Shown piece by piece: positions 5,493-48,800 of a stretch of 64,000 nt of DNA (positions are counted from its first letter, which is position 1; the number at the start of each line of letters is the position of its first letter). Below the pieces are notes generated by a model. That model was not told where the DNA came from. It searched no databases and saw only the letters and a list, made by a program, of their open reading frames with translations. The position numbers and the translations under genes were made by a program. Location of the stretch: positions 3,808,110 through 3,872,109 of the forward strand of contig OZ255621.1 in assembly GCA_965276705.1 (NCBI GenBank), given 5' to 3'. The DNA comes from Acidobacteriaceae bacterium (lineage in GTDB: Bacteria; Acidobacteriota; Terriglobia; Terriglobales; Acidobacteriaceae).

Positions 5493-5533
5493 TTGGAGGA
5501 ATTGTGGTTGCAAGCAAGCCGTGGTGCAACAGG

Positions 5534-5566
5534 GGCCGGAGCCGTGCGCTCCGGCCTTTCTTCGTT
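5534..5566 (+). terminator. Rho-independent terminator candidate downstream of the dehydrogenase gene
   Basis: GGCCGGAGC-cgtgc-GCTCCGGCC (9-bp GC-rich stem, 5-nt loop) followed by TTTCTTCGTT. It sits between convergent genes. Confidence 0.6.
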
Positions 5567-5641: not shown

Positions 5642-6061
5642 TTAGTGAGGAGGCTCTATAGGGGCTGCCCCGTGCGTCCCACCTTCCGTCCCCGGCACGG
5701 GATGCCCATGGAGACCGCGATGACCTGGAGGAACAAGTTCACACGTTTGTGTGCAGGCATCCCCAACCACTCCTGGATCTGTGATCTTCAACGTGGAAGG
5801 AGTCGTGCTGGTAGCTTCGGACAGCAAGCCGTGGAAGGTGACTCGATGGTTGACGAACTTTGCCGCATCGAATTTACCGGAGAGCTGCATGCATCTGTCT
5901 TGAGCGCTGATGACATAGAAACCGGGTGCGTCCTTCTGCTGCGTAACACAGCCCACGACCTTTTCGGGTACGGCCTTCTCTGCAGGGGTAGTTTGCGCCA
6001 CAGCAATGAGACCGGTGGATGCTATTCCCGATAGAGCTACCCATCGAATGATCGCTTTCAT
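5642..6061 (-). CDS. Small secreted protein, unknown function (last gene of the caspase/CHASE2 operon)
   Basis: 139 aa. Signal-peptide-like N-terminus MKAIIRWVALSGIASTGLIAVAQT. Four Cys and a Gly/His/Pro-rich tail. Its ATG overlaps the stop of the CHASE2 gene (ATGA at 6058-6061). Confidence 0.6.
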   Translation of the reverse strand: MKAIIRWVALSGIASTGLIAVAQTTPAEKAVPEKVVGCVTQQKDAPGFYVISAQDRCMQLSGKFDAAKFVNHRVTFHGLLSEATSTTPSTLKITDPGVVGDACTQTCELVPPGHRGLHGHPVPGTEGGTHGAAPIEPPH

Positions 6062-7350
6062 TTCGTTCCCTTTCCGGTGGCCAATTTGAATATCTTGGGA
6101 GTGTGTTTTAAGGCATCCTCTCCTAATACACAGGAGGTCAAAATAAACGGGTTCAGGACAACTGCAAGAACAGTGCGCAACGGAGGAAAATAGTTGAAGA
6201 CCAGCATGAGTAGTGTACTTCCGAGAAAAAGCAAAAAGAGGGTTAACAAAGAATATCCAAGCCGTCTTACCCAGCTCTCTTCCGTTGCAGCATTGATGAT
6301 ATGAAGAAGCATCAGGGAACCCATGAGGAGGCCGAGGTCGAGTAGGGGATTGAGCGGCTTTAGAAAGCGAGCGTCCAGCAGTGACTCGATATAGTTCGCT
6401 TGGAGTTGTACACCGTACTTCGTTCCCCCCGGGAACGGCTTCTCATCGACTTGCGAAAATTCACCTAGAACGACGACCTTCCCGCTAATCTGGTCCTGGC
6501 TCGAGCCGGGCTCCTGTAGCAAGCTGTTTGCGGATATCTCTGGTGGATCCGTGTAGCTGGTGTAGGGAAAGTCCCCATTCTTAAAATCTTTCAGCTCTCG
6601 TGAATCCAGCTTGCTATCGATTTGCAGTGCAGCGGCCAGAGCTAAGCTGGGGACTTCAATGAGTCCTTGCGTGCCGTCGTGCCACGCTGCTGCAGCCTGA
6701 TCCGACCGGAACACACTCCACCGTAGCGGAATCTGCATAGGATCCTCGGTGATTCGAGTGAGGGCGGACTTGACTTTGTTTGCCGTGGAATCAGGCATCG
6801 ACGCATCCGGAAGGAATGGTAGTGTCGGGACCAAATAGAGACAACTGGACGCTTGGGAGGCGTGCGTATTCTCTGCGGTTGGCTGTCCCAGCACGACAGG
6901 AATGTGAAGGCTGTGCAGCGCTTCATTGAAGCGCTTGTCGATATCATCCCCGTTGCACCTATACGCCGCGTCATAGTACTTGTCGATGACGATGACGCGC
7001 GCGCCGTCATCCTGAATAGTCTTGACCAGGGTCGCTAGAGTGGAACGGCTAGAGCAGCGATCTTCGTCAGGAGGCAAAGTGACTACTATCACTCGTGACG
7101 TTGGAACAGCATCAAATCGCCAGCGCACCACGGCCGGTAGCAGCTTTTCAAAGTGTAGATCGAAATTCTTCTGTCTGAGTGCGCACGGGTTTCCGATGGG
7201 CAGTCGGTCCATCTGCCACAACTCAAAAATCACGAGCAATAAAACTGCGCCTAGACGGAGAAGGCCGCGGATACTGAATATGCCATGGCGTAGGTTGCGG
7301 ATTGTGACGTTGCGCCAGCGCCTCCGAAGTGGCCCGGACTTCTGTGTCAT
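6058..7350 (-). CDS. CHASE2 domain membrane protein without a cytoplasmic output domain
   Basis: N-terminal TM segment (LRLGAVLLLVIFELW). Extracytoplasmic region with CHASE2-like blocks (RVIVVTLPPDEDRCS..LATLVKTIQDDGARVIVIDKYYD; GVQLQANYIESLLDARFLKPLNPLLDL). Three C-terminal TM helices, then only about 25 aa. ATGA overlap with the caspase gene at 7347-7350. Confidence 0.75.
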   Translation of the reverse strand: MTQKSGPLRRRWRNVTIRNLRHGIFSIRGLLRLGAVLLLVIFELWQMDRLPIGNPCALRQKNFDLHFEKLLPAVVRWRFDAVPTSRVIVVTLPPDEDRCSSRSTLATLVKTIQDDGARVIVIDKYYDAAYRCNGDDIDKRFNEALHSLHIPVVLGQPTAENTHASQASSCLYLVPTLPFLPDASMPDSTANKVKSALTRITEDPMQIPLRWSVFRSDQAAAAWHDGTQGLIEVPSLALAAALQIDSKLDSRELKDFKNGDFPYTSYTDPPEISANSLLQEPGSSQDQISGKVVVLGEFSQVDEKPFPGGTKYGVQLQANYIESLLDARFLKPLNPLLDLGLLMGSLMLLHIINAATEESWVRRLGYSLLTLFLLFLGSTLLMLVFNYFPPLRTVLAVVLNPFILTSCVLGEDALKHTPKIFKLATGKGTK

Positions 7351-8582
7351 GGCAGGCCCGCAGCGGGTGCCTTCGGCGTTTCACCGGCTAGTAGTGCGAA
7401 GTCTGTATTGTCCGAGCTGCGGCTCATGACTGGTGTCTGATGCTCATGGTAGGCCTTGAAGTCTGCCGCTACCCGATCAGAGACGTGTTGGCGGACGTAG
7501 CTATAAACCGCGCTGAGCGGCGCGTTCCCTCCGAGCTGGTGTACCGCGTCCACCAGATAGTAGGTGAAGTAGCCGTGCCGTAACTGATCGCTTTCCATGG
7601 AGGTTTCATCGCCAGTGCTAGCAGCGAAGATGATGCGGCCGCTGCCCTGAGAGATATGTTCCAAGGACGCCTTTGAGACGCCTGCGGTTGGAATGCCGGG
7701 CGCCAGCATCTTCGGTCCTCCCGCGGCCTCGCCGCTATAGCATGTGTCGATGAAGATAGCAGCGCGGCGCGCACGGAAGCGGGTGGCCACGGCGTTCGAT
7801 AGTTCAACCATCGGCAACGCTGTCGCGTACAGGGTGTCCGGATCGTCTTTCGGCCCGATCTCCGTATCGTGGGTGATGATGTAGCTGACTCCGCCCGTGT
7901 CCATGTCGCGTGCGGAGCCGTGGGTGGCCACGTAGACCAGAGCAAGATCATCGGGCGCGGCACTACGCGCAAGCCAATTCAACTCGACCCGGATATTGCG
8001 CATGGTCGCTTGCTCATCCGTGAGCATGTGGATGTGGTCGGATTGAAATCCGCCGTATTTTGGGTTTGCGATCATGTCGCGAAAACTGCGGGCATCGTCT
8101 GTTGTGTAATTCAGCCCTGGGATATTTTTATCGGCGAACTTTGAGATACCGACAATTAAAGCCCACTTGCCTTGTACTTTGCCGAGCGGTGCGGTCTGTG
8201 GTGGAGGCGTCGACAGAACAAACGGGTTAAGATTCTCCGCCATGGCTTCGGAAGGGAACATCTTTGCCTTTTCCAAAGCAAAATTTGCCGATGTCGCATG
8301 GCCCAGTTTTTGTTCCACCAGGGAACGGTAGTACCAGGCTTCGCCGAGTTCGGAGCAGGTTTCGGTTGCAGTCTTCAAGAGTCGACTGGCGTCGGAGAGC
8401 TGATCCTGTCCACTGTCGGCTTGTAGGTGCTCCAGCGCCTGGACAACGAGATCCTTCCCTGCGCCGCAGCTTTCTGCTCCTACACCCCTGGATTCTAGAG
8501 CAGAGGGATGTGCTGCCCCTCCGCTTACACAGAGCACGACTAACAAGGAAGCGAGATAGAGAATGGTTCGCCGCATGTTCAT
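7347..8582 (-). CDS. Exported TPR-like + peptidase C14 (caspase/orthocaspase) protein
   Basis: Signal peptide MRRTILYLASLLVVLCVSGGAA. Helical TPR-like N-terminal region. Caspase p20 core KWALIVGISKFADKNIPGLNYTTDDA, catalytic His in LVYVATHGSA and Cys in AIFIDTCYSGE. The start is ambiguous (GTG 8600, ATG 8582, ATG 8576; a GAGG lies 7 nt before 8576). Confidence 0.85.
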   Translation of the reverse strand: MNMRRTILYLASLLVVLCVSGGAAHPSALESRGVGAESCGAGKDLVVQALEHLQADSGQDQLSDASRLLKTATETCSELGEAWYYRSLVEQKLGHATSANFALEKAKMFPSEAMAENLNPFVLSTPPPQTAPLGKVQGKWALIVGISKFADKNIPGLNYTTDDARSFRDMIANPKYGGFQSDHIHMLTDEQATMRNIRVELNWLARSAAPDDLALVYVATHGSARDMDTGGVSYIITHDTEIGPKDDPDTLYATALPMVELSNAVATRFRARRAAIFIDTCYSGEAAGGPKMLAPGIPTAGVSKASLEHISQGSGRIIFAASTGDETSMESDQLRHGYFTYYLVDAVHQLGGNAPLSAVYSYVRQHVSDRVAADFKAYHEHQTPVMSRSSDNTDFALLAGETPKAPAAGLP

Positions 8583-8600
8583 ACCTCGGGGTCCAGCCAC

Positions 8601-9863
8601 TCAATGCCCGTTCGCAGTCTGCTTCGGTTTTTGCCCGGCGGCCGCCCTGGCCCGCTGTTTCATCGCAGCCAGTATCTTTCCATTCACGCCGCTGCGGGTC
8701 ATCTGTACCTGGGCAGGATATGTCAGGTCGAACGCGACTTCCGATGCGTTCTGAATGTTGTCGAGAATGTTCGCTTCGTCCATCTTTGCCTGGACCATTT
8801 GGACGATGTCGCTGTTCGTCATCGCGGTTTCGTGAGGCGTCGCACTGCTCTCTCCGGTCACACCTCTTTCTCCAGCGGTCTCCCGTTGTGCCGTATCATG
8901 CGATGCGCTTTTTTCAGAAGTCCCTTCATAGCGCTTGATGCCCGAGACGATACGCGTCTGCGCCTCCAGAAAATATTTCTCCGTAGGCCGTGCTTCGAGT
9001 GCTTTGTCGTACTCAATATCGGCCTTTTGCAGAAACTTCTTCGCGGCCTTCCCATCCTGCGCCTGATAGGCCATAGCTTCATTGGCTACACCGATGTTGT
9101 AGTGACGGTACGCGTCGTCGTCTGGAGCTGGAAACGGACTCATCGTCTCGAGTTGCTCGTCATATTGGCTCCATAGACTCTTCGCTGCTACTTTGTCCGC
9201 TGCATCCAACCCACCCCCATGCGCGAGGTAGATGGTCACCGGTTCGGCGGTGTTCACGATGTAGGACGCCAACTGGTTGGCGACATCGTTGACCAGGTCC
9301 TTCTCTACCTCGACTGGGGATACGGGCGAAACTGTATTTGCACCGGATGTGCCCGGGATTGAATGCATGATGCTGCTAAGAGTGGCCTGATCGTCCCTGC
9401 TGATCAGAGATCGCACATCTCCCGAAGTGACGACATGTCCGTCTCGCTCATTTGTCACGTGGAAGACGACGGTCATACTGCCGGTACCACGATGAATGGT
9501 CGCTCTACCTTCGGTGACGTTTTCGACCTTTGGCGCTCCGTATGCAGTCACCGACGCTCTAAATAGGTACTGGGCTTGCGCATCCCCAACGGTCACGTGC
9601 GTGTCGCTGCTTGTCAGAATACTCTCCAGCTTTGCCTGGATTTCGGCATCCAGTGGAGTCTGCTGTCCCTGCGGCGAAGCCACCAACACTTTTACCGAGG
9701 TATCCGCAAGCGAGACTACCGGCGGCAGGCGGCGCTGAAGCACAATCTTCTTACGAGTCAGGATTGTGCCGAAATTGCAGCAGTCGGCCCACAAGTTAGC
9801 GGCTTGCATTGTCAGCACTGCAACGCAGACAGTGAGAATGAGGCGGTTCGATCGTACTTGCAT
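8601..9863 (-). CDS. Secreted protein of unknown function (first gene of the caspase/CHASE2 operon)
   Basis: Long ORF 8601-9908. The ATG at 9863 gives a signal peptide MQVRSNRLILTVCVAVLTMQAANLWA. Helical TPR-like middle (YRHYNIGVANEAMAYQAQDGKAAKKFLQKADIEYDKALE) and a C-terminal roughly 50-aa module SDIVQMVQAKMDEANILDNIQ..FDL..QVQMTRSGVNGKILAAMKQ. Its stop abuts the caspase ORF. Confidence 0.65.
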   Translation of the reverse strand: MQVRSNRLILTVCVAVLTMQAANLWADCCNFGTILTRKKIVLQRRLPPVVSLADTSVKVLVASPQGQQTPLDAEIQAKLESILTSSDTHVTVGDAQAQYLFRASVTAYGAPKVENVTEGRATIHRGTGSMTVVFHVTNERDGHVVTSGDVRSLISRDDQATLSSIMHSIPGTSGANTVSPVSPVEVEKDLVNDVANQLASYIVNTAEPVTIYLAHGGGLDAADKVAAKSLWSQYDEQLETMSPFPAPDDDAYRHYNIGVANEAMAYQAQDGKAAKKFLQKADIEYDKALEARPTEKYFLEAQTRIVSGIKRYEGTSEKSASHDTAQRETAGERGVTGESSATPHETAMTNSDIVQMVQAKMDEANILDNIQNASEVAFDLTYPAQVQMTRSGVNGKILAAMKQRARAAAGQKPKQTANGH

Positions 9864-10141
9864 CGTGACCCCAACTTCGATTGTGATGAATGGTGTATTC
9901 GCTCTCATCCAGGGGAGCGATGCATCTTCCAGTGGGCCCGGGAACTACTTGGTCTTGGGGGAAGACCGTGATCGCGACATTATCTCGGTGACAGCGGCGA
10001 GCTACTGAAAAGGCTCCAGGTTATTGGAGCGATTCCGGAATGCGACACAGCATACCGCAGCACTGGCTACAGTGCTATAAAAATCTTGGCGCTGATTAGA
10101 GAGTGGAATGAGTCTTGCCGCTGTGAGCGTTGCCGGCCGTA

Positions 10142-10218
10142 TGGTGACCCTGGGAAGATTCGAACTTCCGACCTGCGGTTTAGGAAACCGTCGCTCTATC
10201 CACCTGAGCTACAGGGCC
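10142..10218 (-). tRNA. tRNA-Arg (anticodon CCT)
   Basis: The reverse complement GGCCCTGTAGCTCAGGTGGATAGAGCGACGGTTTCCTAAACCGCAGGTCGGAAGTTCGAATCTTCCCAGGGTCACCA folds as a 77-nt cloverleaf. Acceptor GGCCCTG/CAGGGTC, D arm GCTC/GAGC, anticodon loop TT-CCT-AA, T arm GGAAG-TTCGAAT-CTTCC, discriminator A, encoded CCA. There is one A:C mismatch at the top of the anticodon stem. Confidence 0.93.
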
Positions 10219-10275: not shown

Positions 10276-11370
10276 TCATACATTGAACTTGAAGAATAGG
10301 ATGTCGCCGTCCTTTACGACATACTCCTTGCCTTCTGAGCGAAGCAGGCCCTTTTCCTTCACTGCTTGCTCGCTGCCGAGTGCGAACAGGTCGTCGCTTG
10401 CATAGCAGTCGGCCTTGATAAAGCCCTTCTCGAAGTCGGAGTGGATAACACCCGCAGCCCCGGGTGCCTTAGTGCCGCGGCGAATCGTCCAAGCACGCAC
10501 CTCCTGAACCCCGGCGGTGAAATACGTGATGAGATCGAGCAGACGGTATGCCGCGTGAATCAAGCGGTTGAGACCGGGTTCGGCGAGCCCCATACTTGCA
10601 AGAAACTCGTCGCGCTCTGCCGGTTCCAGTTGCGCGATCTCGCTTTCGAGCGCGCCGCAGATGCTTACCATCTGGCTGCCTTCCTCTTTCGCGCGTTGTT
10701 TGACCGCGGCAATATACGCATTGTCTGCGGAGAGGCCTGCCTCGTCCACATTGGCTACATAAAGCTGCGGCTTGGCAGTAATCAAGAACAGATCGCGGGC
10801 AATCGGCTTCTCATCGGCCGTGAGTTCAACGGTGCGTGCGGGCTTGCCGGCGTTGAGCGCGGCGATCAGTTTCTGGAGCACCGCAAGTTCAGCCTTGGCC
10901 TTTACGTCATTCGATTTCGCGGCGCGTTCGGTCCGCGTCACGCGCTTTTCGACCGTGTCGAGATCGGCCAGCAACAATTCCGTATTGATGATCTCTATGT
11001 CATGCAGTGGATTGACGCCGCCGGCAACGTGGATCACCTCTGGATCGTCGAAGCAACGAACCACATGGGCGATGGCATCGGTCGCGCGGATGTGGCCGAG
11101 AAATTGATTGCCGAGTCCCTCGCCCTTGGACGCACCGGCGACCAGGCCTGCGATGTCGATGAACTCCATGGTGGTCGGCACCAGGCTCTTGGGATGGATC
11201 AGGTCTGCAATCTTGTTCAGCCGCTCATCTGGAACCGTAACGACGCCGGTATTTGGATCGATCGTGCAGAAGGGGTAGTTGGCAGCCTGCGCCTTGGCCG
11301 ATGTCAAGGCGTTGAAGATGGTGCTCTTGCCCACGTTGGGCAAGCCGACGATTCCGCAGTTCAGTGGCAC
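10276..11370 (-). CDS. ychF: Redox-regulated ribosome-binding ATPase YchF (Obg-like GTPase family)
   Basis: [24 protein letters not shown]-loop, 364 aa, TGS-like C-terminus ([25 protein letters not shown]). Confidence 0.95.
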
Positions 11371-32254: not shown

Positions 32255-32563
32255 TTACCGCCCCTCCCACGTTGGTGGAACGCGATGGCCCGTTCGTGCG
32301 AGTGCGTCAATTACTGGAATTTCTTAAAGTCACTTCAGCAACCCAAAGAGATTGCCTGCAGCCTGACTCGAACCTCCGGTTCGTGCACTGCATTGCCTGT
32401 CATCCGCATGGATGAGGGCGCACAGAACACTTTTCATCGATACTTGGGACTAGACTCCCGCTTTCTGCCAATTGACTTCGTTGTGTGAGTCGGATCTGCG
32501 CGTGTTTTGCGCTGCAGTGTTTGCCTTACTTACGACTTTATTTACAGAATCCGGGAGTTTCCA

Positions 32564-37639
<5,076 letters not shown>

Positions 37640-37891: not shown

Positions 37892-38719
37892 TTACGTTAC
37901 GTTTATTCTGCTTTCGGTCGAGGCTTGTGGGGACGCCAGGGACGGCGCCCAATCGAAGAGCGCGAGCGTGGGCTGCGGCTTGTGATGCCTCCACGCTACC
38001 GCGCCGGGCGCATCCGGCAAAACCTGCAGCGGGGCGATCTCCCATCCCTCCGGTACGCCTTGCAGGCGTTGTGCCGGTTCCCCAGCATCGAGCGGAACGG
38101 CAAAGCTGTCCAGCGCGCGAAACAGACCAGTACCTTCGGCCTTCAGCAGTGCTTCCTTGCGGGTCCAGCATCGATAAAAAGCAGTCGCGCGTTCTGCCGG
38201 TGAGAGCTTCGACAGAGCTGCGCGTTCTGCCGCCGCGAAGTTCTGCTCCGCTACATCGTCGAGGTCGTTTGTTATATGGGCGCGCTCCACGTCCACGCCG
38301 ATGTCAAACTCCAGAGCGAAGGCAAAGATAGCAAGATCGCGGGTGTGCGAAAGGTTGAAGCAGATCCGGCTGTCGGCCAGGAAGGGCTTACCGTGCGGGC
38401 CTATCGAAACCTCAATCTCTCCTGCATTTGCTACGGAGGCATAGTGCGCCAGCAACAGGCGCAGGGTGGCGCGCGTGGCAATCGATTGCCGCTGATCCTC
38501 AGGAAATAAGAATCGGCGGGAGCGTTCGATCTCCTCCGGACGCAGGTAGGGCAGATAAGCCTCGCTTGCAAGGCGAGCCTTGGGCCGAAGCCGCCATACA
38601 TGGATCGTATTGTCAGGAAGCAGTGGAAGCGCCGGAGTCGATTGCCAAAGAGTGGGTCCGGCTTGCGCCGCAGTCGTCACGTCAGAGCGTGCCTGCATGC
38701 AACAGCCGTCCATCGACAC
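37892..38719 (-). CDS. 4'-phosphopantetheinyl transferase, Sfp/EntD type
   Basis: FNLSHTRDLAIFAF, FDIGVDVERAH and WTRKEALLKAEG (PPTase motifs). Candidate starts at 38719, 38713 and 38698 all overlap the end of the upstream NRPS gene. Confidence 0.85.
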   Translation of the reverse strand: MSMDGCCMQARSDVTTAAQAGPTLWQSTPALPLLPDNTIHVWRLRPKARLASEAYLPYLRPEEIERSRRFLFPEDQRQSIATRATLRLLLAHYASVANAGEIEVSIGPHGKPFLADSRICFNLSHTRDLAIFAFALEFDIGVDVERAHITNDLDDVAEQNFAAAERAALSKLSPAERATAFYRCWTRKEALLKAEGTGLFRALDSFAVPLDAGEPAQRLQGVPEGWEIAPLQVLPDAPGAVAWRHHKPQPTLALFDWAPSLASPQASTESRINVT

Positions 38720-41700
38720 GATGGGCCAAGGGAGGCGTTGACTCCGCAGGCGCGCCGTTCAACTCCCCACTCAGCAAGCAGCGCCGCACCAGTTCGGTGG
38801 TCGCCTCCAGCTTCTCACCGAGGAACATCGTCTCGTGATCGCCGGGCGCCCACAACACATCAACACCATGCATCGCGACCTGTTCCCAGCCGCAGGCAGC
38901 GCTGGCGCCCGGCACTTCGCGCGTATCGTGAGCGCGGATCAGCGTGAGCCGGATCGGCACCGGTCGCGCGCGATACGCGTGCAGGGCGGCGAAGGTATTC
39001 AGCGTGGTGTTGTACATGAACTGCGGCAGTGGCATGTGGAAGCGGTTGGCTAGTACGTTGATCGCACTCCAGTGCCGGATGAAAAAGCGGTTCCGCTTGC
39101 TCAACAGGAAGCGCCCGGCCGCGCCGCGCATGTACTGCATGCGTTGCCCGACGGAGAGGGAACTCATCTTTTCATTGTGCCGGCGCAGCTTGCTGCGGAT
39201 GCCATTGAACTTCGGCGCGAATGAGCCGTTGGCCTTCACGCTCTCGACACCGGTCAGGTATCCGGGCAGCCAGGAGTCGAAGAGAATGACCGACGCCATG
39301 GTCTCGCCAGCCTCGATCAGGTGGCGCGCCACCTCCACGGTGAGCGGGCCGGCTGCGCACCAGCCCATAACCGAGTAGGGTCCATGCGGCTGTACAGCGC
39401 GTATCTCGCGCACATAGTTGGCCACACGCTCGGGCATGCCGAGTTCGTTGTCCGCTTCCAGCTCGCGCAGCCCATAGAAGGGTTGGGTGCGGCCAAGGGC
39501 CTGTGACAGCCCCTGGTAGAGAAGGTAGGAGTGGATCATGAAGACCGGCGGCAGATGCCCGTGGGTCTGCACCGGCACCATAGCGCGAATCTCGTCCTGC
39601 AGCCGCAGTCTCGCGGAGAGCTTCGCGACGGTGTCCGCGTCGAAGATGGTTGTAATGGGGAGCCGTGTCCCGAAGGCCTTATTCACACGTGCGAACAGGC
39701 GTACCAGCAGCAGTGAGTTGCCGCCGGCACTGAAGAACGATGCATGCGGATCGATGGTCGAGAGATTCAGTGTCTCCCTCCAGATATCGCTCAACTCCCG
39801 CGATACATCATCTGTGGCAAGAGCACTGTCCTCAGCTATCGCCAGCGCGCTTTCTGCTGCGGGTTCGGGCGCAGGGCGCAGCGCCGTTATGTCGATGGAG
39901 CCATCCAGTCGATAGGGCAGCGCATGTGCTATCTGGAGAGTCGATGGCACAAGATGCTGCGGCAACGTCGCGGCCAGGCTCTGCCGTAGCTCAAGTGCGT
40001 CCAGCTCTCCATGACCCATCACCCAGGCGGCAATCTGCGATATCCCATCTTCGCGCTGCTGCAGAATGGAGACTGCGTCGATTACGCCCGGCATGCGCAG
40101 GAGCGCTGCATCGAGATCGCTCAGCTGTATGCGATGTCCGCGCAGATGCACGACAGAGCTGATGGTGCCGAGGACGCGGAATCCGTGAGCGGTATTCCCT
40201 TGCGTCTGCACCAGGTAGCCGGTCCGTTCCCGGCTGGTTGCGTGGCGATGGACCAGGGTCAATTCACCGGTCGCGCCGGCGGGGACGTGCTGGCCTTCTG
40301 CATCCAGCACGGATGGCGCGACGTCGGGCAACACGACGAAGTCCGCACTGCGCGTGACGGCGGTGGCCAGTGCGTTGCCGTGGACAGAGAGGAGGCTCAC
40401 GGCGGAGCGAACCGCGGTCGTGTCGTTCAACCAGCCGGTGTGCTCGACGTGCCGCCCGCGCGCGATAGCTGTCAGGCGGCGATCGCCCTTCCAGCCATCG
40501 GCAACCCATCCACGCCACTGGGCCGGTTCCGCGATGACGACCGACGATTGGTGAGCATCGAGGATCGGCTGGAGTGCCACGCCGGACTGGTAGGTGGTGA
40601 GGTCGAGGGTGACTCCGCTGTGCAGCGCGAGCAGATGGTCGAAGAGGGCATCCGCAGGTGATGCAGGCGCGACGGAGAGCAGGCCGTCCTCCGGAGCAAG
40701 ATGGAGCCGCTCCGCGAGTGCGGAGACCGAGTGCATCGTGTCCGCGAAGGAGATGTCCTCTGTAGAAAAGGTAGACGTCCCGAATGAAGCCGTGCTCGGC
40801 ATTGCCCAATGTCGCGGCATGGTGCGCGAGCCGTCTGCAGCGGTAGCAGCATCGACGCCGGGCAGCGTGGCAATGCCCTCGAAGGCCAGAGACCGTGTCC
40901 GCGACGACGCAGTGTCGTGAAGGAACCGTGCCGGGGCCAGCAGAAGTGTGGAGTCAGAAGCAGCGAGCTGGAGGTCGGCCCCGCTGGTGTGCGCAGGCAG
41001 CGGAACGATGTGCGGCCCGTTCTCGCCAAGCTGAAGCAGTGCAAGCAGCGCGACTGCCGATGCGACTTCTGGTGTCAGCACGACGAGTGCGGTCGTGGCA
41101 CCGGCCAGATGGGCCTCGTGTTCCAGATAAGCAGACAGGGCTTGCGCCCGTTCGGCAAGCTGCTGCCAGGTCAACGCCTGCGAGCCTGCACGCACGGCTA
41201 TACCCGCCGGCTGTGCGAGGACATGCGCTGTAACGGTGTCGAGAAGGTTGTCCGTCGCGGTCTGCCGGGTGTCGTCGACCGACGCGATCGTCTCAACCAA
41301 TGAGGAAGGAGCAGAACCGACTTCGATCTGGGAGATGGGCTGCTCGGGATGCGCGAGCGCGCCGGTGAGCATCTGTTGGAAGGCAGCAAGCAGGCCTTCG
41401 ATACGTGCACCGGTAAACAGGTCGGTGTTGTATTCGATCTGCAGGCGCGGGCCCTCGGCGCGCTCGACGACACTCACCAACAGATCGAAGTCGACCCCAC
41501 CCGAGACCGAGCGCAGTGGTGTCAGTGTTAGGCCGGGTATTTCTTGTGGCTGCATGAACGCGCGCTGGTAGACAAACCAAACCTGCAAGAACTGCGAGCC
41601 TGCCCCCTCCTGATGCGTCTGAAAGGCCTCCATGACGCGGGAGAAGGGCATGTCCTGATGCGTGTACGCGGAGGTCTCCCACTCCCGCACGCGCAGCTCC

Positions 41701-42815
41701 AAATCGCGGAAGCTGGGATCGCCGGTGACATCGGCGACGACGATCTGCGGGTTGGCAAAGCGTCCCACAACGTCTTCCATGCCGGGCTGCGTCCGATTCG
41801 CGATGGTCGACCCGAGCAGGAACTGTCGCTGCCCGCTGAATCGCGCACACAGAGCCTCGAAGATCGTCAGCAGGACGATATGCTTTGTCGATCCGCTGGT
41901 GCGGCAATAGGCAGCGAGCTTTTGATTCACACTGGGCGGCAGTAGAGCCGAAGCGATGGTGCCGGGAAAGCTGCGTCCGGCCTGTCGCGGATAATCTGCC
42001 GGCATATCCAACGCGGGCAGCTCCCGGGGAATGTGGCTGGTCCAGAAATCGAGTGCAGTGGCAGCCCGCTCGCTGGCCAAGTACTCATTCTGCCAAACGG
42101 TAAAGTCGGCGAACTGGAAGGGCAGCTCGGGCAGGTTGCCAGCCGGCCCAGCGGCAACCTCTTTCAGAGAGCCAGCCCCGGTACGCAGCGCGTGGTAGAT
42201 ACGCGCTAAATCGCGCATCATCAGTCCGTTTGACCAGCCGTCGCAGACGATGTGGTTCATGGTCAGCGCTAGGACATATCGCTCCGGGGCCAACGCGAAG
42301 AGGCGCGCCCGCAGGACTGGACCGTGCTCCAGGTCGATGGCCAGGTGGCTGTGCTTGGACAGAGCAGCTGCGAGGGCAGTCGGTTGACTGGCGGGGCTCA
42401 CGGAGCTCAGGTCCTGCTGGGTGAACTCATAGAGCGGCCGGGTCAGGATGACCTGCGAGAGCTGCCCGTCCACCACGCGGAAGAGCGTACGCAGCGCCTC
42501 GTGCCGGATAGTCAGAGCAGCAAGCGCCTGCTCGACGATCAGCGGATCCAGTGCACCGGCAATCTCACAGGAGATCGCCATGTTCGAGGCGGTCGAGCCG
42601 GGGTCGATCTGCGCCAGGGTCCAGTAGCGGGTCTGCTCCAGGCTTGCCGGGACGACGAAGGTCTCTTCCGCCCCTTCGGCATCGGGAGTGCCGTCGGAGG
42701 GCGTTGACACTGGATGTCCTGTCTCCGGGTAGCCGTCACCCACACGTATCTCGTCGGGCGCGACAGCGTCTGCGTTCGTGTGTTCTAAAGACTCGAGATG
42801 GGGGGCGCGTGTCAT
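38682..42815 (-). CDS. NRPS termination module: C - degenerate A - T - TE (Cys nucleophile)
   Basis: 1377 aa. C motif MNHIVCDGWS, carrier motif FFSAGGNSLLLV, TE motifs VFMIHS, VMGWCAAG, ILFDSW, WAPGDHETMF. The A-domain core motifs are eroded (see findings). Confidence 0.9.
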   Translation of the reverse strand: MTRAPHLESLEHTNADAVAPDEIRVGDGYPETGHPVSTPSDGTPDAEGAEETFVVPASLEQTRYWTLAQIDPGSTASNMAISCEIAGALDPLIVEQALAALTIRHEALRTLFRVVDGQLSQVILTRPLYEFTQQDLSSVSPASQPTALAAALSKHSHLAIDLEHGPVLRARLFALAPERYVLALTMNHIVCDGWSNGLMMRDLARIYHALRTGAGSLKEVAAGPAGNLPELPFQFADFTVWQNEYLASERAATALDFWTSHIPRELPALDMPADYPRQAGRSFPGTIASALLPPSVNQKLAAYCRTSGSTKHIVLLTIFEALCARFSGQRQFLLGSTIANRTQPGMEDVVGRFANPQIVVADVTGDPSFRDLELRVREWETSAYTHQDMPFSRVMEAFQTHQEGAGSQFLQVWFVYQRAFMQPQEIPGLTLTPLRSVSGGVDFDLLVSVVERAEGPRLQIEYNTDLFTGARIEGLLAAFQQMLTGALAHPEQPISQIEVGSAPSSLVETIASVDDTRQTATDNLLDTVTAHVLAQPAGIAVRAGSQALTWQQLAERAQALSAYLEHEAHLAGATTALVVLTPEVASAVALLALLQLGENGPHIVPLPAHTSGADLQLAASDSTLLLAPARFLHDTASSRTRSLAFEGIATLPGVDAATAADGSRTMPRHWAMPSTASFGTSTFSTEDISFADTMHSVSALAERLHLAPEDGLLSVAPASPADALFDHLLALHSGVTLDLTTYQSGVALQPILDAHQSSVVIAEPAQWRGWVADGWKGDRRLTAIARGRHVEHTGWLNDTTAVRSAVSLLSVHGNALATAVTRSADFVVLPDVAPSVLDAEGQHVPAGATGELTLVHRHATSRERTGYLVQTQGNTAHGFRVLGTISSVVHLRGHRIQLSDLDAALLRMPGVIDAVSILQQREDGISQIAAWVMGHGELDALELRQSLAATLPQHLVPSTLQIAHALPYRLDGSIDITALRPAPEPAAESALAIAEDSALATDDVSRELSDIWRETLNLSTIDPHASFFSAGGNSLLLVRLFARVNKAFGTRLPITTIFDADTVAKLSARLRLQDEIRAMVPVQTHGHLPPVFMIHSYLLYQGLSQALGRTQPFYGLRELEADNELGMPERVANYVREIRAVQPHGPYSVMGWCAAGPLTVEVARHLIEAGETMASVILFDSWLPGYLTGVESVKANGSFAPKFNGIRSKLRRHNEKMSSLSVGQRMQYMRGAAGRFLLSKRNRFFIRHWSAINVLANRFHMPLPQFMYNTTLNTFAALHAYRARPVPIRLTLIRAHDTREVPGASAACGWEQVAMHGVDVLWAPGDHETMFLGEKLEATTELVRRCLLSGELNGAPAESTPPLAHRVDGRLLHAGTL
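38796..39563 (-). other. Type I thioesterase domain with Cys in the nucleophile elbow (approximate borders)
   Basis: GWCAAG, with the Cys codon at 39357-39359 (aa 1153). Asp in ILFDSW and His in GDHETM. Confidence 0.8.
39600..39818 (-). other. Peptidyl carrier (T) domain (approximate borders)
   Basis: GGNSL with the Ser codon at 39714-39716 (aa 1034). Confidence 0.85.
39861..41288 (-). other. Degenerate adenylation-like domain (approximate borders)
   Basis: ANL-fold-length region between C and T. A3 reads PSTASFGTSTFS instead of TSGSTGxPKG. A8 reads GTISSVVHLRGHRIQLSDLD. A10 reads LDGSID instead of NGKxD. Confidence 0.7.
41346..42653 (-). other. Condensation (C) domain of the termination module (approximate borders)
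   Basis: NHIVCDGWS, with the catalytic His codon at 42252-42254 (aa 188). The first His of HHxxxDG is Asn. Confidence 0.75.
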
Positions 42816-42855
42816 CCTCGGGCATTTACTTTCAGTCGTCTGCAGCGCCCTAGCC

Positions 42856-45800
42856 CTAGATCGTTTGCACCTTGCGAAACCGGTCCCGGGCTATTGCCTT
42901 AATAGTATGCGTCGGTGGTGCCCCCTTGTCAGGGCTTTCTTTCTCCAGATTTTCGATTTCGGTAACCAGTACGGAGATACTTTTGCTCTGGAAGAGCTGC
43001 TTTGCCGTCACCGGGATGCCGGCCTGCGTGGCCTGCGTGGTGATGCGGAAGATGGAAAGAGAGTCGCCGCCCAGTTCGAAGATACTGTCGTCGATCGAGA
43101 TCGCAGGTACATTGAGCACGCGGGTGAAGATGCCGACCAGCTGCTCCTCGAGCGGTGTGCGGGGCTGGGTGATGGCGCGTTCCCCAGAGCTGCGTTCAGT
43201 CTGCGGGGCGGGCAATGCGCGGTAGTCCACCTTGCCGTTCGCGGTGCGCGGGAAGGAAGGCAGCAGCAGGATGGCCTGGGGCTGCATATGCTCGGGAAGC
43301 TGCGTGCGCAGGTAGGCGCGTAGTTCGCGGGTGAGTTGAGTGGGCTCCATTCCGTTGCGCGGGATTGCGTAAAGCGCCAGCCGCTTGTCGCCGGGAACAT
43401 CCTCGGTGCTGTTCCAGTCGGCGCGGGCGTAAGCCACGGCGGCGCGGACCTCAGGGAACTGCTCGGCGGCATATTCGATCTCACCGAGTTCCACGCGATA
43501 GCCGCGGATCTTGATCTGCGCGTCACGCCGGCCTAGAAACTCAATGGTGCCGTCTGCGGTGTAGCGGGCCAGGTCTCCAGTGAGATACACGCGCTCGGTG
43601 ATGGGTTGGGACCCATGGGTCAGGGTCACATCGATGAACTTGGCAGCGGTGGTCTCGGGTGCATGCAGATACCCGATTGCAAGCCCGTCACCGGCGGCGC
43701 AGAGCTCCCCGGCGACGCCGATGGGAACCGGCCGCTGTGAGGCGTCAAGCAGGTAGACTCGCGTGTTCGCGATCGGACGGCCGATTGGGACGCTGCCGCG
43801 CTCGAGATCGTTCTGTTGAATCGTGTGGCAGCAGGTGAAGGTGGTGTTCTCCGTAGGCCCATAGCCGTTGACCAGGCGAAGACCCGGTGCTGCTTCGAGC
43901 AGAGTGCGGACATGTGCTACAGAGAGCACATCGCCACCGGCGAGGAGCTGCCGCAGCGGTTTGAGCGCGTCTAGGTGGTCCATCACCATCAAATGGAAGA
44001 GCGCCGCGGTGAGCCATACGGTGGTGATGCCGTGCTGCCGGATGGTTGCGCCGATCTCCTCCGGGGCCGGCTTCGCGCCGGGCATTAGCACCAGGCGGCC
44101 GCCATTCAGCAGTGCGCCCCAGATCTCGAAGGTGGAAGCGTCGAACGAGATTGGCGCAAGCTGCAGGATGACCTCATCGGGACCGAAGCGTGCGTAGTCT
44201 GTGTTGAGGACCAACCGGGTCACAGCACGCTGCGGCACTACCACACCCTTTGGTTTTCCCGTCGAACCGGAGGTGTAGATCATGTAGGCGGGAGCCGTTG
44301 CGGGGATTCTTGCCTGAGCGGAGGAGCTGGCCGAATCCAGCGACAGGTCCTCAAAGGCGACCGTCTTCACCGAGAAAGACGCAAACCGTTGCGCCAGCCG
44401 CCGTTGCGTAAGAAGGAGTTGCGGCCGGGCGTCATCCAGCAGCAAGGCAAGCCGTGCCTGCGGGTATTCCGGGTCGATCGGCACATACATGCCGCCAGCC
44501 TTCAATGTGCCCAGGATTGCAACGATCAGTTCCGGCGCACGCTCCATGCTGATGGCGACGCGCAGGCCATTTTCGGTGGCGACATGGCTGCTGTACTCCG
44601 TGGTGAGCCATGCAGCGAAGGCGTCCGAGCGGGTGTCGAGTTCGCGGTAGGTGAGCGAAGTTCCTTCAGCCACCAGCGCGGCAGCGTCGGGTGTGCGTAC
44701 AACCTGATCGCGAAATACCTGGGCGATGGAACTGTCGCGCGGGTAATCCCGCTCGGTCCGGTTCCAGGTGACGAGCATCTGCTCTAGATCGGCATCGGAG
44801 AGCAAACGCAATGCGCCGATCGGCCTGTCAGGGTTCGCGGCGGCATCGGTTGCCAATAGCTCCAGCGCGCCCACCCAGCGAGCAATGGTCTCGCGGTCGA
44901 AGAGGCTGGTGCTGTAGTCGCAGTCGAGCAGCAGGTCGTTGCCGCGATCGACGAAATTGAAGAACAGATCGGCGGAGGCGGCGGTTTTTGCGTTTGGGTC
45001 GAGCTGCGTCCTCAATCCGTCGAAGGACAATCGCGAGCCAACTTGCTCAAGGTTGAACTGAACCTCGGCCAGCGGCAGTCGAGAGGGGTCGCGGGCCATC
45101 TTCAACTGTTGGATGAGAGAAAACAGCGTATATTGCTGATGGTCAAGAGCATCGTATACGGAGCTTTGCACGTCGCCGGTCAGAGCAAGGAAGGGCTTGG
45201 TTGCATCGGCATGAATGCGCAGAGGCAGGAAGTTAACTGCATGACCGATAAAGCTCTTACCGGCAACTTCACGCTGGCCTGCCATGGGGACGCCGACGAC
45301 CAGGTCGTCCTGCCCGGTGAGGCGGCTGAGTAGTGTCGCATAGGTGCTCAGCAAGGTGACGAAAAGCGTTGTGCCGTTTGCCTGCGCACTGCTGCGCAAC
45401 CGGGCAAGCAGGTCGCCGGAAAAGAGGTGACGATAGGTGGCGCCGTCATGGGAGCGCAGTGCAGGGCGCGGCCGATCTGTCGGCAACTGCAGCGGCTCAG
45501 GCAGGGTGGTGTACTGCGATTGCCAGAACTCCGCGACGGCAGCGCCGTCGGCGGTGGAGCGGGCGTCGTGCTCCCCGCGTGCCTGCGTGAGCAGGGAGTG
45601 CGCGGGAAGCAGCTTGGCTGTGGTGCCGTTGCGGGCGGAAGAATAAAGCGCGCCCAGCTCCTCGAAGAGCACATTGATCGACCAGCCGTCGAGCACGATA
45701 TGGTGCGCGGTCAGAATCAGGTCGTGCCGTTCCGGCGACAGCTTGAGCAGGATGACGCGGACGAGCGGTCCTTGACCCTTAGGGCCGCCAAATAGATCGA

Positions 45801-48800
45801 ACGGTGTCGAGGCCTCGTCTTCGAGCAGCGCGATGCGGCGGACATGCTGCTCCTCGACGGAGAGCGCACTCCAGTCCTCTTCGCGAACGGGCAGGGTTGC
45901 GTCGGGCGAGATGTGGATGCGTTCGCCGTCGCGCGTGATCGTGAGCCGCAACGCCTCATGACGCGCCACCAGCGTATCGAGCGAGCGGAGCAGCGCATCG
46001 CGCTCGAGCGCGCCGTCCAAGTGCAGAGTGACCGATTCATTGAAGGCGCAGCTAGCCGCGGCATCGAGCTGCGAGGCCAGCAGAACCTCACGCTGCGGCT
46101 CGGTGATGGGTGCTTCTGCATCCGTGACGGGAGCGACAGCGCTCTCCGCGTGCGCGGCAACGGGCTGCTGCGTTCCGGTTGCAGGAAGGGCCTGACCGGT
46201 GCGCATGGCTTCAAGCGCGGTGCGGAAGCTGGCACGCACCGTCGCCAGATCGGCATCGGTGTGCGCCGTGGTGAGGAAGCAGGGAAAGCCCTCCTGCAGA
46301 TGGACCCCTTGCTCGCGCAGGTGGTAATAGATGAGCCGCGCCAGGCGCGATTCCATCGGCGAGGGGAAGAAGAACCACGACGCGAAGTTCTCGACGGGTG
46401 AAGGGAAGCCGTATTCCGCAAAGAGGCCGCGCAGATCGTCGGCGAGCGCGCTTGCTTTGTCGTTCAGTGCTGATTGGAGCGCCGGGCCTGCATCCTTCAG
46501 GTGCGTCAGCGCAGCTCGTACCGCGGCCATGGTCAGCGGATGACGCACGAAGGTGCCGGCAAAGAAGGTGACGCCGACCTGCGGGATGGAGTCGTCCCCG
46601 AAGCGCCAGCTGCCGCCGTCGAGCGCGTCCATATATGTGCGGCTGCCCGCCACAACGCCCACCGGCATTCCGCCGGCGACGACTTTGCCGTAGGTAGCCA
46701 TGTCGGCGCGGATGCCGAAGAGCGCCTGTGCGCCCCCGGGATGGGTGCGGAATCCCGTGACAACCTCATCGAAGACCAGCGCAGCGCCGGCATCTTCGGT
46801 GATAGTGCGCAGCTCGCGCAGGAATTCAACCGGGCGTAGCGCCGGATGGCGGCTCTGTACCGGTTCGACCAGTACGGCGGCGATCTCATCCTTGCGACGG
46901 CGGATGACCTCGAGTGCGGCGGGTGAGCCGTATTCAAGCACCAGCATGTTGTGCACGCTTTCGCGCGGGATGCCGGGCGCGGCCGGGATGGAGCGCTCGG
47001 CGCGCGTCGACTTCACCAGCACCTCGTCGATCATGCCGTGGTACGCGCCGGAGAAGAGCACGACCAGATCGCGGCCGGTCACGGTGCGAGCCAGCCGCAT
47101 CGCCGCCATTACCGCCTCGGAGCCGGTATTGCAGAACGACACGCGCTCCATGCCGGTCATGCCTGCGAGCAGTGCCGCACACTCCCCGGCTAGGTCGGTC
47201 TGCGGGCCGATGGGAAAGCCGAGTTCCAGTTGCGCCCGAACTGCGTCGGTTACGAATTTAGGGGAGTGGCCGAAGAGGATCGATCCGTAGCCGTTCAGAA
47301 TGTCGATGTAACGGTTGCCGTCCTTATCCCACAGGTAAGCGCCCTGGGCGCGCTCGACCACCAGCGGATAGACCATCTCCTTCCACTCGGGATGAAAGCC
47401 GGAGGCGACGCGCGGATCGGCGAGCACGTCACGATAGTCTTCGACGTGCTGCTTTGAGCCGGCGGTGCGCCGGTTATAACGCGCGATCAGTCCCGCGAGA
47501 TGTTCCTTCTGTACTCGATTGAGCGGGGCTTCCTGCCGCAGTTCGAGCGGCTTCAGCGGCACCATGGTGCCGAGTGTCGGCTCCGGAGCGGCACTTGCGG
47601 AGCCTGCCGGTGCGGTGTGGTGGGCCACGCTGGGAAGCGACTTGGCCAGGCTGACCGCGCCGGCGCGAGACGAGGGCGCTGTGGTGGGGACGGCTGCAAC
47701 GGACGTTGCAATGTGCACGGCAGGTTGTGCCGCACCACCTGCAGCCAGCACGGCAAGCTGCTGCTGCATAAGGTCGGCCATGGCCTGCATCTGCTGTGCG
47801 AAGAGGGCGGCGTAGTTGCCGGTTGCAACACTGCCCGCTGTAGCCGGCGCAGAGGTCGGGAGTGCCGGCATGTTCGGCGCCGCCGCGACCACTGGGGCAC
47901 CCGCCGGCGTAGGCGCGGGATGGGCGTGCGGACGCAGATGATCGGCCAGCGCGGCGAAGTTGCCGAACTCGCCCATGATCTGGCGGAAGGTGAGCTTGAC
48001 TCCGTAGCGGGCACGAATGGACTGCGTGAGCTGGGTCAGAAACAGCGAATCCAGACCAAGCTCGACAAAGGAGGTGGCGGCCGGGACACCGGAAAGATCC
48101 AGATCCGAGAGGTCGGCCACCATCGCCTTCAACTCGTCCAGAACAGAGTCGACAGCAGGAATGGCGTCATTGGCATGAGTTCCAGGGGAGATCAATGGCA
48201 TGTCGTTTCCTTGGCGTCCGGTCATAGCCGGGAGTGCCGCGTCCGAGTGTGTCGCCTGCTCTGTCGCGGTCTGCGGTCGATTGGCCGGTGCGCCGACGGG
48301 CGCGGGGGCATCGACCCAAAAACGCTTGCGTTGAAAGGGATAGGTAGGCAGCAGGATACGCCGGGGCTGCCTGCCTTCCCAAAAGTTGGTCCAAAGCGGC
48401 TCCAACCCCAGTGTGCTGAGCTTTGCCAGGGTAGGCAAGATGCCTGCCGTACTGAATGGGGTGACCGAAAGGGGAGCCGAAGACGACTCGACTGCATCGG
48501 GCGCACGCGCCGGATCGAGGCTTGTCAACACGCGCCCTGCATCGAGCGTGCCGGCCAATGTCTGGCGGATCGCTCCCTGTAGGTTGGGGACAGGGCTGAT
48601 TTCGAGAAAGATCGCATCGCCCGCCAGCGTAGCGTGGGCGACGCGGATTGTCTCGGCAAAGCGGACCGGCTCACGCGCCTGGCGTGGCCAGTCCCAATCG
48701 GCAAGCGTCTCTTCGGTAACAGAAGCGCCGGTGAAGCTGGAGACCCAGGGCAGCTGCGGCGCGACCGGTAGGAGCGTGGGCAATGCGGCGCGCAGCCCAT

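Follow-up and report, generated by a model that had tools for sequence, protein, structure and literature searches.

This study concerns a compact operon in an Acidobacteriaceae bacterium (assembly GCA_965276705.1, contig OZ255621.1), which lies in a stretch of 64,000 nucleotides (nt; positions 3,808,110 to 3,872,109 of the forward strand) that we call the window and whose own numbering is used throughout. Four consecutive open reading frames, here named A, B, C and D, all lie on the minus strand and span positions 9863-5642; B encodes a caspase-like protease, A a partner protein, C a protein with a CHASE2 domain and D a small exported protein. Our main finding is that A and B are a conserved obligate unit, and that the four genes are not one indivisible unit. 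On balance, we lean towards reading the locus as an extracytoplasmic (periplasmic or envelope) proteolytic module, with A and B as its core and C and D as an accessory pair. This is of interest since, to our knowledge, bacterial caspase homologues have so far been viewed almost exclusively as cytoplasmic proteases of cell death or defence.

The association between A and B is seen from whichever gene the search starts. An alignment of A, used as a pattern against 185,579 species-representative genomes, found a relative in 144, from which 79 loci were kept, almost all of them in Acidobacteriota (Acidobacteriaceae, Terracidiphilus, Granulicella, Bryobacteraceae, Solibacteraceae and Acidoferrum). 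B lies downstream of A, on the same strand, in 77 of these 79 species-level genome loci, and the remaining two are contig ends. When an alignment of B was run against metagenomes instead, 80 loci were returned, and A sits directly upstream in every one of those with room to check (58/58). The first-pass annotation of this DNA had presented the four genes as a single cassette, but the invariant unit is A plus B, since C and D are found together in about a quarter of the loci only. The full A-B-C-D order is nevertheless conserved past close relatives: it occurs in 13 of the 79 species-level loci (and in one more, L033, where a shorter protein stands in for D, see below) and in 14 metagenome loci, and the proteins encoded there are only 26-32% (C) and 33-45% (D) identical to those of the window. 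A different kind of evidence comes from a database protein of 983 amino acids (aa), P0354, in which, behind a signal peptide, an A-like module (aa 11-382) is fused to a C-terminal CHAT/C25-like clan-CD protease with intact HFAGHG and FFNACETG motifs; as Rosetta-stone evidence, this fusion argues that A-type modules work with caspase-fold proteases. Considering the constant gene order, the short spacer, the adjacency in every checkable locus from either anchor and the A-CHAT fusion, a physical partnership between A and B is the most economical reading.

The gene boundaries, taken from the list of open reading frames and from reading of the sequence, describe a tightly packed operon, much as the first-pass annotation had it. 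Gene A runs from 9863 to 8601 (a longer frame opens at 9908, and the alternative start is annotated on the record) and ends with a stop codon at 8603-8601. Gene B follows at 8582-7347, with alternative starts at GTG 8600 and ATG 8576, which leaves a spacer of 18 nt (from ATG 8582) or 24 nt (from ATG 8576). The start at 8576 is likely the true one: a GAGG lies 7 nt ahead of it, and translation from there yields the 409-aa version that is entered in a public protein collection. Genes C (7350-6058) and D (6061-5642) come next, and both junctions are ATGA overlaps, between the stop of B and the start of C at 7350-7347 (..GCC ATG A..) and between the stop of C and the start of D at 6061-6058 (..AAA TGA AA..); the 4-nt B/C overlap is also present in another locus, L080. 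These overlaps had led to the genes being described as translationally, and their products as stoichiometrically, coupled; the overlaps stand, but the two kinds of coupling were deduced from them rather than observed. Because all four have homologues elsewhere, A, B, C and D are real genes.

B is an orthocaspase-type C14 cysteine protease. It matches Peptidase_C14 (Pfam PF00656) over aa 139-391 (nt 8168-7410, minus strand), with E=2.4e-18 and 67.1 bits against a gathering cut-off of 21.4. In an alignment with yeast metacaspase, the catalytic motifs SGHGG and DSCHSG have VATHGS and DTCYSG as their counterparts in B, which places the catalytic residues at His221 (codon 7922-7920) and Cys281 (codon 7742-7740), and as both are invariant in 69/69 members of the B family, the intact His/Cys dyad pointed out earlier is borne out. 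The S1-pocket residues Asp163 and Asp279, which fall at the aligned yeast-metacaspase positions, are equally invariant (69/69). Because these four residues never vary and align with yeast metacaspase, B looks like an active protease. Two conserved Asp in the S1 pocket of orthocaspases and metacaspases go with cleavage at Arg or Lys in P1 (PMC6426788), and because its pocket is acidic B is predicted to cleave after Arg or Lys as well. The enzyme class is ordinary. Like bacterial orthocaspases (e.g. Microcystis MaOC1; clan CD, C14), B combines a C14 domain, a His-Cys dyad and two S1 Asp, with p20 and p10-like regions within a single chain; unlike these proteins, it has a predicted cleavable signal peptide, a disulfide-type N-terminal helical hairpin (carrying a Cys39/Cys76 pair kept in 68/69 homologues) and an obligate exported partner, A. 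It is also without the cytoplasmic accessory domains that are usual in orthocaspases (WD40, NACHT, GUN4 and FGE-sulfatase).

Where these proteins reside was assessed by charge and hydropathy heuristics applied to their N-termini. Signal-peptide-like N-termini were called in 69/69 homologues of A, 67/69 of B (the other two being frameshifted contigs) and 60/61 of D, which, together with four transmembrane (TM) segments in C, agrees with the earlier statement that every product has an export signal or a TM segment. The signal of B usually ends, among homologues, in A-x-A-Q-G/A-R directly ahead of Cys39. Export of B by the twin-arginine translocation (Tat) pathway, which the MRR start of the window protein might bring to mind, was considered and judged unlikely family-wide, as an RRxhh motif is present in only 14/69 homologues; Sec is the likelier route on these motifs. 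All four products thus appear, from their predicted N-termini, to be extracytoplasmic, and such a location fits both the Cys pair of B and the four Cys of D, which suit an oxidising compartment, and the envelope-type fold of A. The exported caspase of this locus had been set apart from bacterial homologues mostly discussed as cytoplasmic effectors, but exported ones were already surveyed in 2012, in a study that listed 46 sequences whose N-terminus bears a helix or a signal peptide and that discussed extracellular roles (PMC3501461). Linkage of a caspase to CHASE2 is known as well, from fusions, but there the caspase is cytoplasmic (PMC3501461; PMC8195603).

Gene A encodes a 420-aa protein with a signal peptide at its N-terminus, which had been described as helical. 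In an AlphaFold2 model built from 76 sequences (predicted local distance difference test score, pLDDT, 83), the first half is instead an alpha/beta domain with long strands (aa 38-213, nt 9752-9225), with a TPR-like region of helices (aa 220-322, nt 9206-8898) after it, then a linker predicted to be disordered (aa 318-344) and, at the C-terminus, a domain of four helices (aa 348-410, nt 8822-8634), all on the minus strand. Foldseek matches the alpha/beta domain to LptE, PelC, CsgG, FlgT, the flagellar LPHT ring and HpaA (E 4e-6 to 1e-4, probability 1.0), with target TM-scores of 0.23-0.57 across the set and of ~0.55 for PelC and an A. baumannii lipoprotein. The sole Pfam match of A points the same way, being to LptE, with a score of 18.6 bits that falls short of the cut-off of 23. 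Proteins of the LptE/PelC/CsgG/FlgT type form plugs and rings in the periplasm or at the outer membrane. A shares with this superfamily the N-terminal alpha/beta fold and the weak LptE match, but differs in having extra helical and C-terminal domains and neither a lipobox (the window protein reads ..LWADCC.., and in most homologues the hydrophobic core is followed by ..A-Q-N-F-G and no Cys) nor cognate barrel or export genes nearby. The C-terminal domain, with no match in Pfam (where the scan gave scattered chance matches only) or in the PDB, is a new domain; it is duplicated in some A proteins (e.g. P0120, L030 and L035). The family comprises 166 database proteins, and 271 clusters at 50% identity are found at E<=1e-30. 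In L004, L005, L006, L022, L080 and L082, gene A is present as two or three tandem paralogues ahead of B.

The fold of A raises the possibility that the locus is an accessory of envelope or polysaccharide biogenesis, with A as an outer-membrane-associated export component resembling PelC or LptE, B maturing exported matrix or surface proteins, and the adjacency of polysaccharide genes being functional. Besides the Foldseek matches to PelC, LptE, CsgG and FlgT, this possibility could draw on the GT2, WsaF-like and sugar-dehydrogenase genes that adjoin the operon and on the surface-related neighbours of 16 metacaspase operons in the 2012 survey. However, the polysaccharide genes are convergent to the operon here and are not neighbours in other loci, where the flanks are DUF4337, NDH-2, sulfatase/FGE, coaBC, type III polyketide synthase or GGDEF genes; moreover, the neighbourhood has no conserved outer-membrane barrel or synthase, and a lipobox is missing from A. 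We regard a biogenesis role as improbable. Under the reading that we prefer, that of a proteolytic module, A would bind B and, at the envelope, serve it as scaffold, localiser or regulator, a role suggested by the envelope-type domain and the TPR-like region; that A is the main substrate of B is an alternative, although a less likely one.

Turning to the accessory pair, C contains a CHASE2 domain (Pfam PF05226; aa 74-349, nt 7131-6304, minus strand; E=7.3e-14, 52.4 bits against a gathering cut-off of 26.3). By a heuristic hydropathy scan, its TM segments lie at about aa 29-47, 336-354, 367-385 and 391-409, between basic termini, which gives a layout of basic N-terminus, TM1, CHASE2, three TM segments and a basic tail of 17-20 aa. 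The protein ends ~20 aa past TM4 and has no second Pfam domain, hence no output domain, and a PDB sequence search with it found no relative. Its description as a CHASE2 sensor is therefore right about the domain, but 'sensor' in the signalling sense is unproven. None of the cytoplasmic outputs taken here to characterise CHASE2 transmembrane sensors (Zhulin 2003), a kinase, cyclase, GGDEF/EAL or fused caspase, is present in C. The closest parallels are the Trichodesmium metacaspase-CHASE2 and the EACC2-caspase-CHASE2 proteins (Kaur/Aravind), in which the same two domains are functionally linked and the TM-CHASE2-3TM layout is the same. In these fusions the caspase is on the cytoplasmic side of TM1, and CHASE2 is a possible extracellular input to an intracellular protease; here, by contrast, the two are separate proteins without an EACC2 or TRADD-N component, and the caspase is predicted to reach the side of the membrane on which CHASE2 lies.

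Could C and D simply be an independent CHASE2 unit that came to lie next to an unrelated A-B unit by chance? About 75% of A-B loci are without C and D, and C is very divergent (26-32% identity), as might be expected in that case. A search of the 17-kilobase (kb) loci with a hidden Markov model (HMM) built from CHASE2 genes speaks against it. A CHASE2-only gene adjoins B in 20 of the 79 loci (14 co-directional, 5 convergent, plus L007), all 19 relatives of C that adjoin B being 408-510 aa long, and wherever the HMM matched, the locus has one CHASE2 gene and this gene directly adjoins B; such neighbours come in three arrangements and reach into deep branches of the B tree. The 14 co-directional CHASE2 genes are accompanied by D, and contigs found with D as anchor all show A-(A)-B-C-D. 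Among the metagenome loci found through B, C is downstream in 16 of 54 and D in 14, the loci with C but without D being consistent with contig ends; C and D thus are a strictly co-occurring accessory pair, present in about a quarter of A-B loci. Considering the adjacency in 20 of 79 loci in several arrangements, the ATGA overlap between B and C here and in L080, and the independent precedent of documented caspase-CHASE2 fusions, the link between CHASE2 and B is not accidental, and adjacency by chance of the two pairs as a whole seems to us very unlikely. The convergent CHASE2 genes, which belong to Bryobacteraceae, Acidoferrum and other deep lineages, usually bring a secreted partner of their own: in 4 of the 5 loci (L021, L024, L037 and L048; at ~11.6-13.2 kb), the gene is preceded by one for an exported protein of 280-400 aa, c30, which L025 lacks.

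D is a 139-aa protein with a signal peptide and no match to any Pfam or NCBIfam family. Because a single-sequence homology search with D returned D alone, its family was delineated with a profile of homologues taken from the loci, which collected 131 database proteins. These have four invariant Cys (38, 57, 103 and 107) and a tail with the consensus PPGxRGL...PGxEGGTPG around an invariant Arg115 (codon 5719-5717 in the window, from the family alignment). In the AlphaFold2 model, aa 32-102 (nt 5968-5756, minus strand) form an OB-like beta-barrel with pLDDT >90, and the conserved tail (aa 108-139, nt 5740-5645) is disordered (pLDDT ~50); D is read as a disulfide-bonded beta-barrel protein. Potempin A is among its weak, generic OB-like Foldseek matches (E 0.036, target TM-score 0.50). 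D resembles the potempins of Tannerella in being a small secreted beta-barrel encoded in an operon with an exported protease, but the two match weakly in structure and not at all in sequence, and D occurs in a subset of A-B loci only. Its conserved C-terminal tail also recalls the tail gating of Pepco barrels. That the tail is the functional element is suggested by L033, where a 111-aa signal-peptide protein (10658-10993) lies between B and the CHASE2 gene in place of D; it carries the tail motif of D (HRGLKGKKPGPPAGTPGE) after a Lys/Asp-rich disordered stretch and is without the beta-barrel, so that a tail-only protein replaces D.

Other lineages surround the same core with other genes. In a neighbour-joining tree of B, accessory gene sets follow clades, with CHASE2 in deep branches and in two clades that have C and D. 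The other half of the tree has an 800-aa signal-peptide caspase-DUF4384 upstream and a 1,030-aa signal-peptide TPR-CHAT protein downstream, and a family with a Tat signal, c2, often lies between the upstream caspase-DUF4384 and A; all three kinds of accessory gene encode export signals, and no copy of c2, TPR-CHAT or caspase-DUF4384 was found in the window. In Terracidiphilus-type genomes these genes make up a co-directional run of caspase-DUF4384 (~800 aa), c2, A, B and TPR-CHAT (~1,030 aa), every one signal-bearing. This five-gene run, with three exported caspase-fold proteases, is found at 4217-13925 of L030 and in ~24 similar loci (e.g. L027, L031, L034-L036, L041 and L044). The c2 gene, which lies at 6670-7869 in L030 and immediately upstream of A in 27 other loci as well, encodes a protein of ~400 aa that has a twin-arginine SRRxFL motif in 18/18 sequences and matches nothing in Pfam or the PDB. 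A relationship between c2 and A, as diverged paralogues, was considered and rejected, as hhalign gives a probability of 0.2 for c2 against A. Three metagenome-assembled genomes, labelled Verrucomicrobiae (L010), Candidatus Babeliales (L011) and Candidatus Aquilonibacter (L015), all group with Acidobacteriaceae in the B tree, and the flanking gene order of L010 and L015 is that of the Acidobacteriaceae loci L008, L009, L013 and L014; mis-binning or mislabelling is the likely origin of these labels.

How might such a module work? Because B is predicted to be exported, C, a four-TM protein with periplasmic CHASE2 as its sole domain, would share a compartment with the protease, and C and D would most likely gate or direct B activity. 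Because C has no output domain, it is more plausibly a membrane tether or a ligand-dependent regulator of B than a signalling receptor. D, for its part, could be a pro-substrate, a decoy or an inhibitor of B, as suggested by its exposed invariant Arg and the predicted preference of B for cutting after Arg or Lys, with Arg115 in the tail being a candidate site of cleavage or recognition. What we observe is the order of the genes and its conservation, the signals for export, the residues of the active site and S1 pocket, the folds and the A-CHAT fusion; contact between A and B, P1 specificity, the parts played by C and D and the biological output of the module are what we infer. We can also sketch a bolder scheme, which we offer as a long shot: a caspase system wholly outside the cytoplasm, in which A, as an LptE/CsgG-like ring, would keep B latent, the CHASE2 protein would act as trigger, and B would cut the Arg tail of D, or A itself, to free an envelope effector or a peptide signal. 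The caspase-DUF4384, B and TPR-CHAT proteins of the sister lineages would then form a periplasmic protease cascade, a counterpart of the caspase-gasdermin and caspase-EACC1 logic.

Several points weigh against the proteolytic module as we read it. Export of the products is a heuristic prediction, and B has a basic residue just after its predicted cleavage site (Arg38, in 60/69 homologues), which is atypical of Sec substrates. In an oxidising compartment, moreover, the catalytic thiol of a cysteine protease has to be protected. The fold relatives of A are mostly lipoproteins, yet A has no lipobox, and the fold match of D is weak, its best Foldseek hits (E 0.015) being the OB domains of aminoacyl-tRNA synthetases and RPA. 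The idea of an Arg site is drawn only from conservation and the predicted S1 pocket. Finally, C and D are missing from about three quarters of A-B loci and are therefore not essential to the core function.

In analogy to the caspase-EACC1, Pepco and gasdermin modules of the cytoplasm, the same parts can be assembled into a different machine, a periplasmic protease-activated effector, where cleavage by B would free a latent ring- or pore-forming A, or D with its C-terminal tail, C would be the trigger sensor, and the outcome would be envelope permeabilisation or cell death on stress or phage attack. The nearest NCBIfam model for B is indeed 'caspase, EACC1-associated type' (NF047832), the subfamily of the caspase-EACC1 defence modules (Kaur et al. 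2020), and in PADLOC-DB v2 the generic 'caspase' model, alone, matches B (E=1.9e-8). The fold of the A N-domain includes ring and channel formers (the PelC dodecamer, CsgG), the barrel and conserved tail of D recall tail-gated Pepco, and gene order could be read in the same sense. However, the NCBIfam score of B, 92.8 bits, is below the family cut-off of 140; there is no EACC1, Pepco, sensor NTPase or STAND sensor at the locus, and PADLOC-DB v2 has no match for A, C or D and assigns no defined system. There is no defence or defence-island context either. Accessory gene sets track the phylogeny of B clade by clade, the GC (guanine plus cytosine) content of the operon is ordinary (52-59%, against 51-62% in the flanks), and the disordered segments of A have no conserved basic site. 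Furthermore, all components appear to be exported, and phage sensing is not expected outside the cytoplasm. We therefore hold this effector reading to be unlikely. The earlier view that the locus fits no described system is in line with the generic PADLOC match, the sub-threshold NCBIfam score and literature searches without a description.

As for the surroundings of the operon, a tRNA gene on one side and polysaccharide genes on the other were correctly reported. Beyond the 5' end of gene A, tRNA-Arg(CCT) lies at 10142-10218, followed by ychF. Adjacency to a tRNA gene can suggest a mobile island, an inference that was rejected here, as the GC profile has no island signature. The intergenic region between tRNA-Arg(CCT) and gene A (9909-10141, minus strand) is the expected place of the operon promoter; a scan for sigma-70 promoters, whose site counts overall are at chance level, found no site there, but the sigma-70 consensus may not apply to Acidobacteriota. 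On the other flank, genes for a UDP-glucose/GDP-mannose dehydrogenase, a WsaF-like glycosyltransferase and a GT2 protein are convergent to the operon. D and the sugar-dehydrogenase gene converge, and a GC-rich hairpin with a 12-base-pair stem (5531-5559) lies between their 3' ends; judged by consensus match only, it is a candidate for a bidirectional terminator at the end of the operon. In other loci (L016, L026, L028, L003 and L080), an FGE-sulfatase gene and a sulfatase gene are often found downstream of B or D, an adjacency that may be no accident because FGE-sulfatase domains are common fusion partners of bacterial caspases.

Further along, the window contains two features of a different nature. 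A hybrid polyketide synthase-nonribosomal peptide synthetase (PKS-NRPS) occupies 38682-51075 on the minus strand. Its 2,739-aa protein has the layout KS-AT-ACP-aminotransferase-C-A-PCP, an iturin/mycosubtilin-like architecture for loading of a beta-amino fatty acid, and the next protein (1,377 aa) has Pfam condensation, PCP and thioesterase domains, with ~500 aa without an assigned domain between condensation and PCP; the two proteins probably belong to an acidobacterial lipopeptide cluster. On the plus strand, 32507-37639 encodes a protein of 1,710 aa that carries five or more Big_3_5 Ig-like repeats and is probably a large adhesin of the cell surface.

In the literature that we searched, no characterised exported orthocaspase was found, and there was no description of the A-B pair, the A family, the D family or an exported caspase linked to an output-less CHASE2 protein. 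With an ordinary enzyme at its centre, what is new in this locus is (i) the obligate partner, (ii) the topology and (iii) the accessory repertoire.

In conclusion, across a whole phylum of bacteria that abound in soil, a caspase-type protease that looks active is, as far as can be predicted, placed outside the cytoplasm and tied to one partner family, with CHASE2 proteins or additional exported caspase-fold proteases as recurrent associates. The main organisms are hard to manipulate, but the module is well-defined, phylum-wide and testable. If confirmed, it would (i) give a first handle on what exported C14 proteases do, (ii) provide a functional context for output-less CHASE2 proteins and (iii) add three new protein families to characterise, that is, A, D and the Tat-signal family c2.

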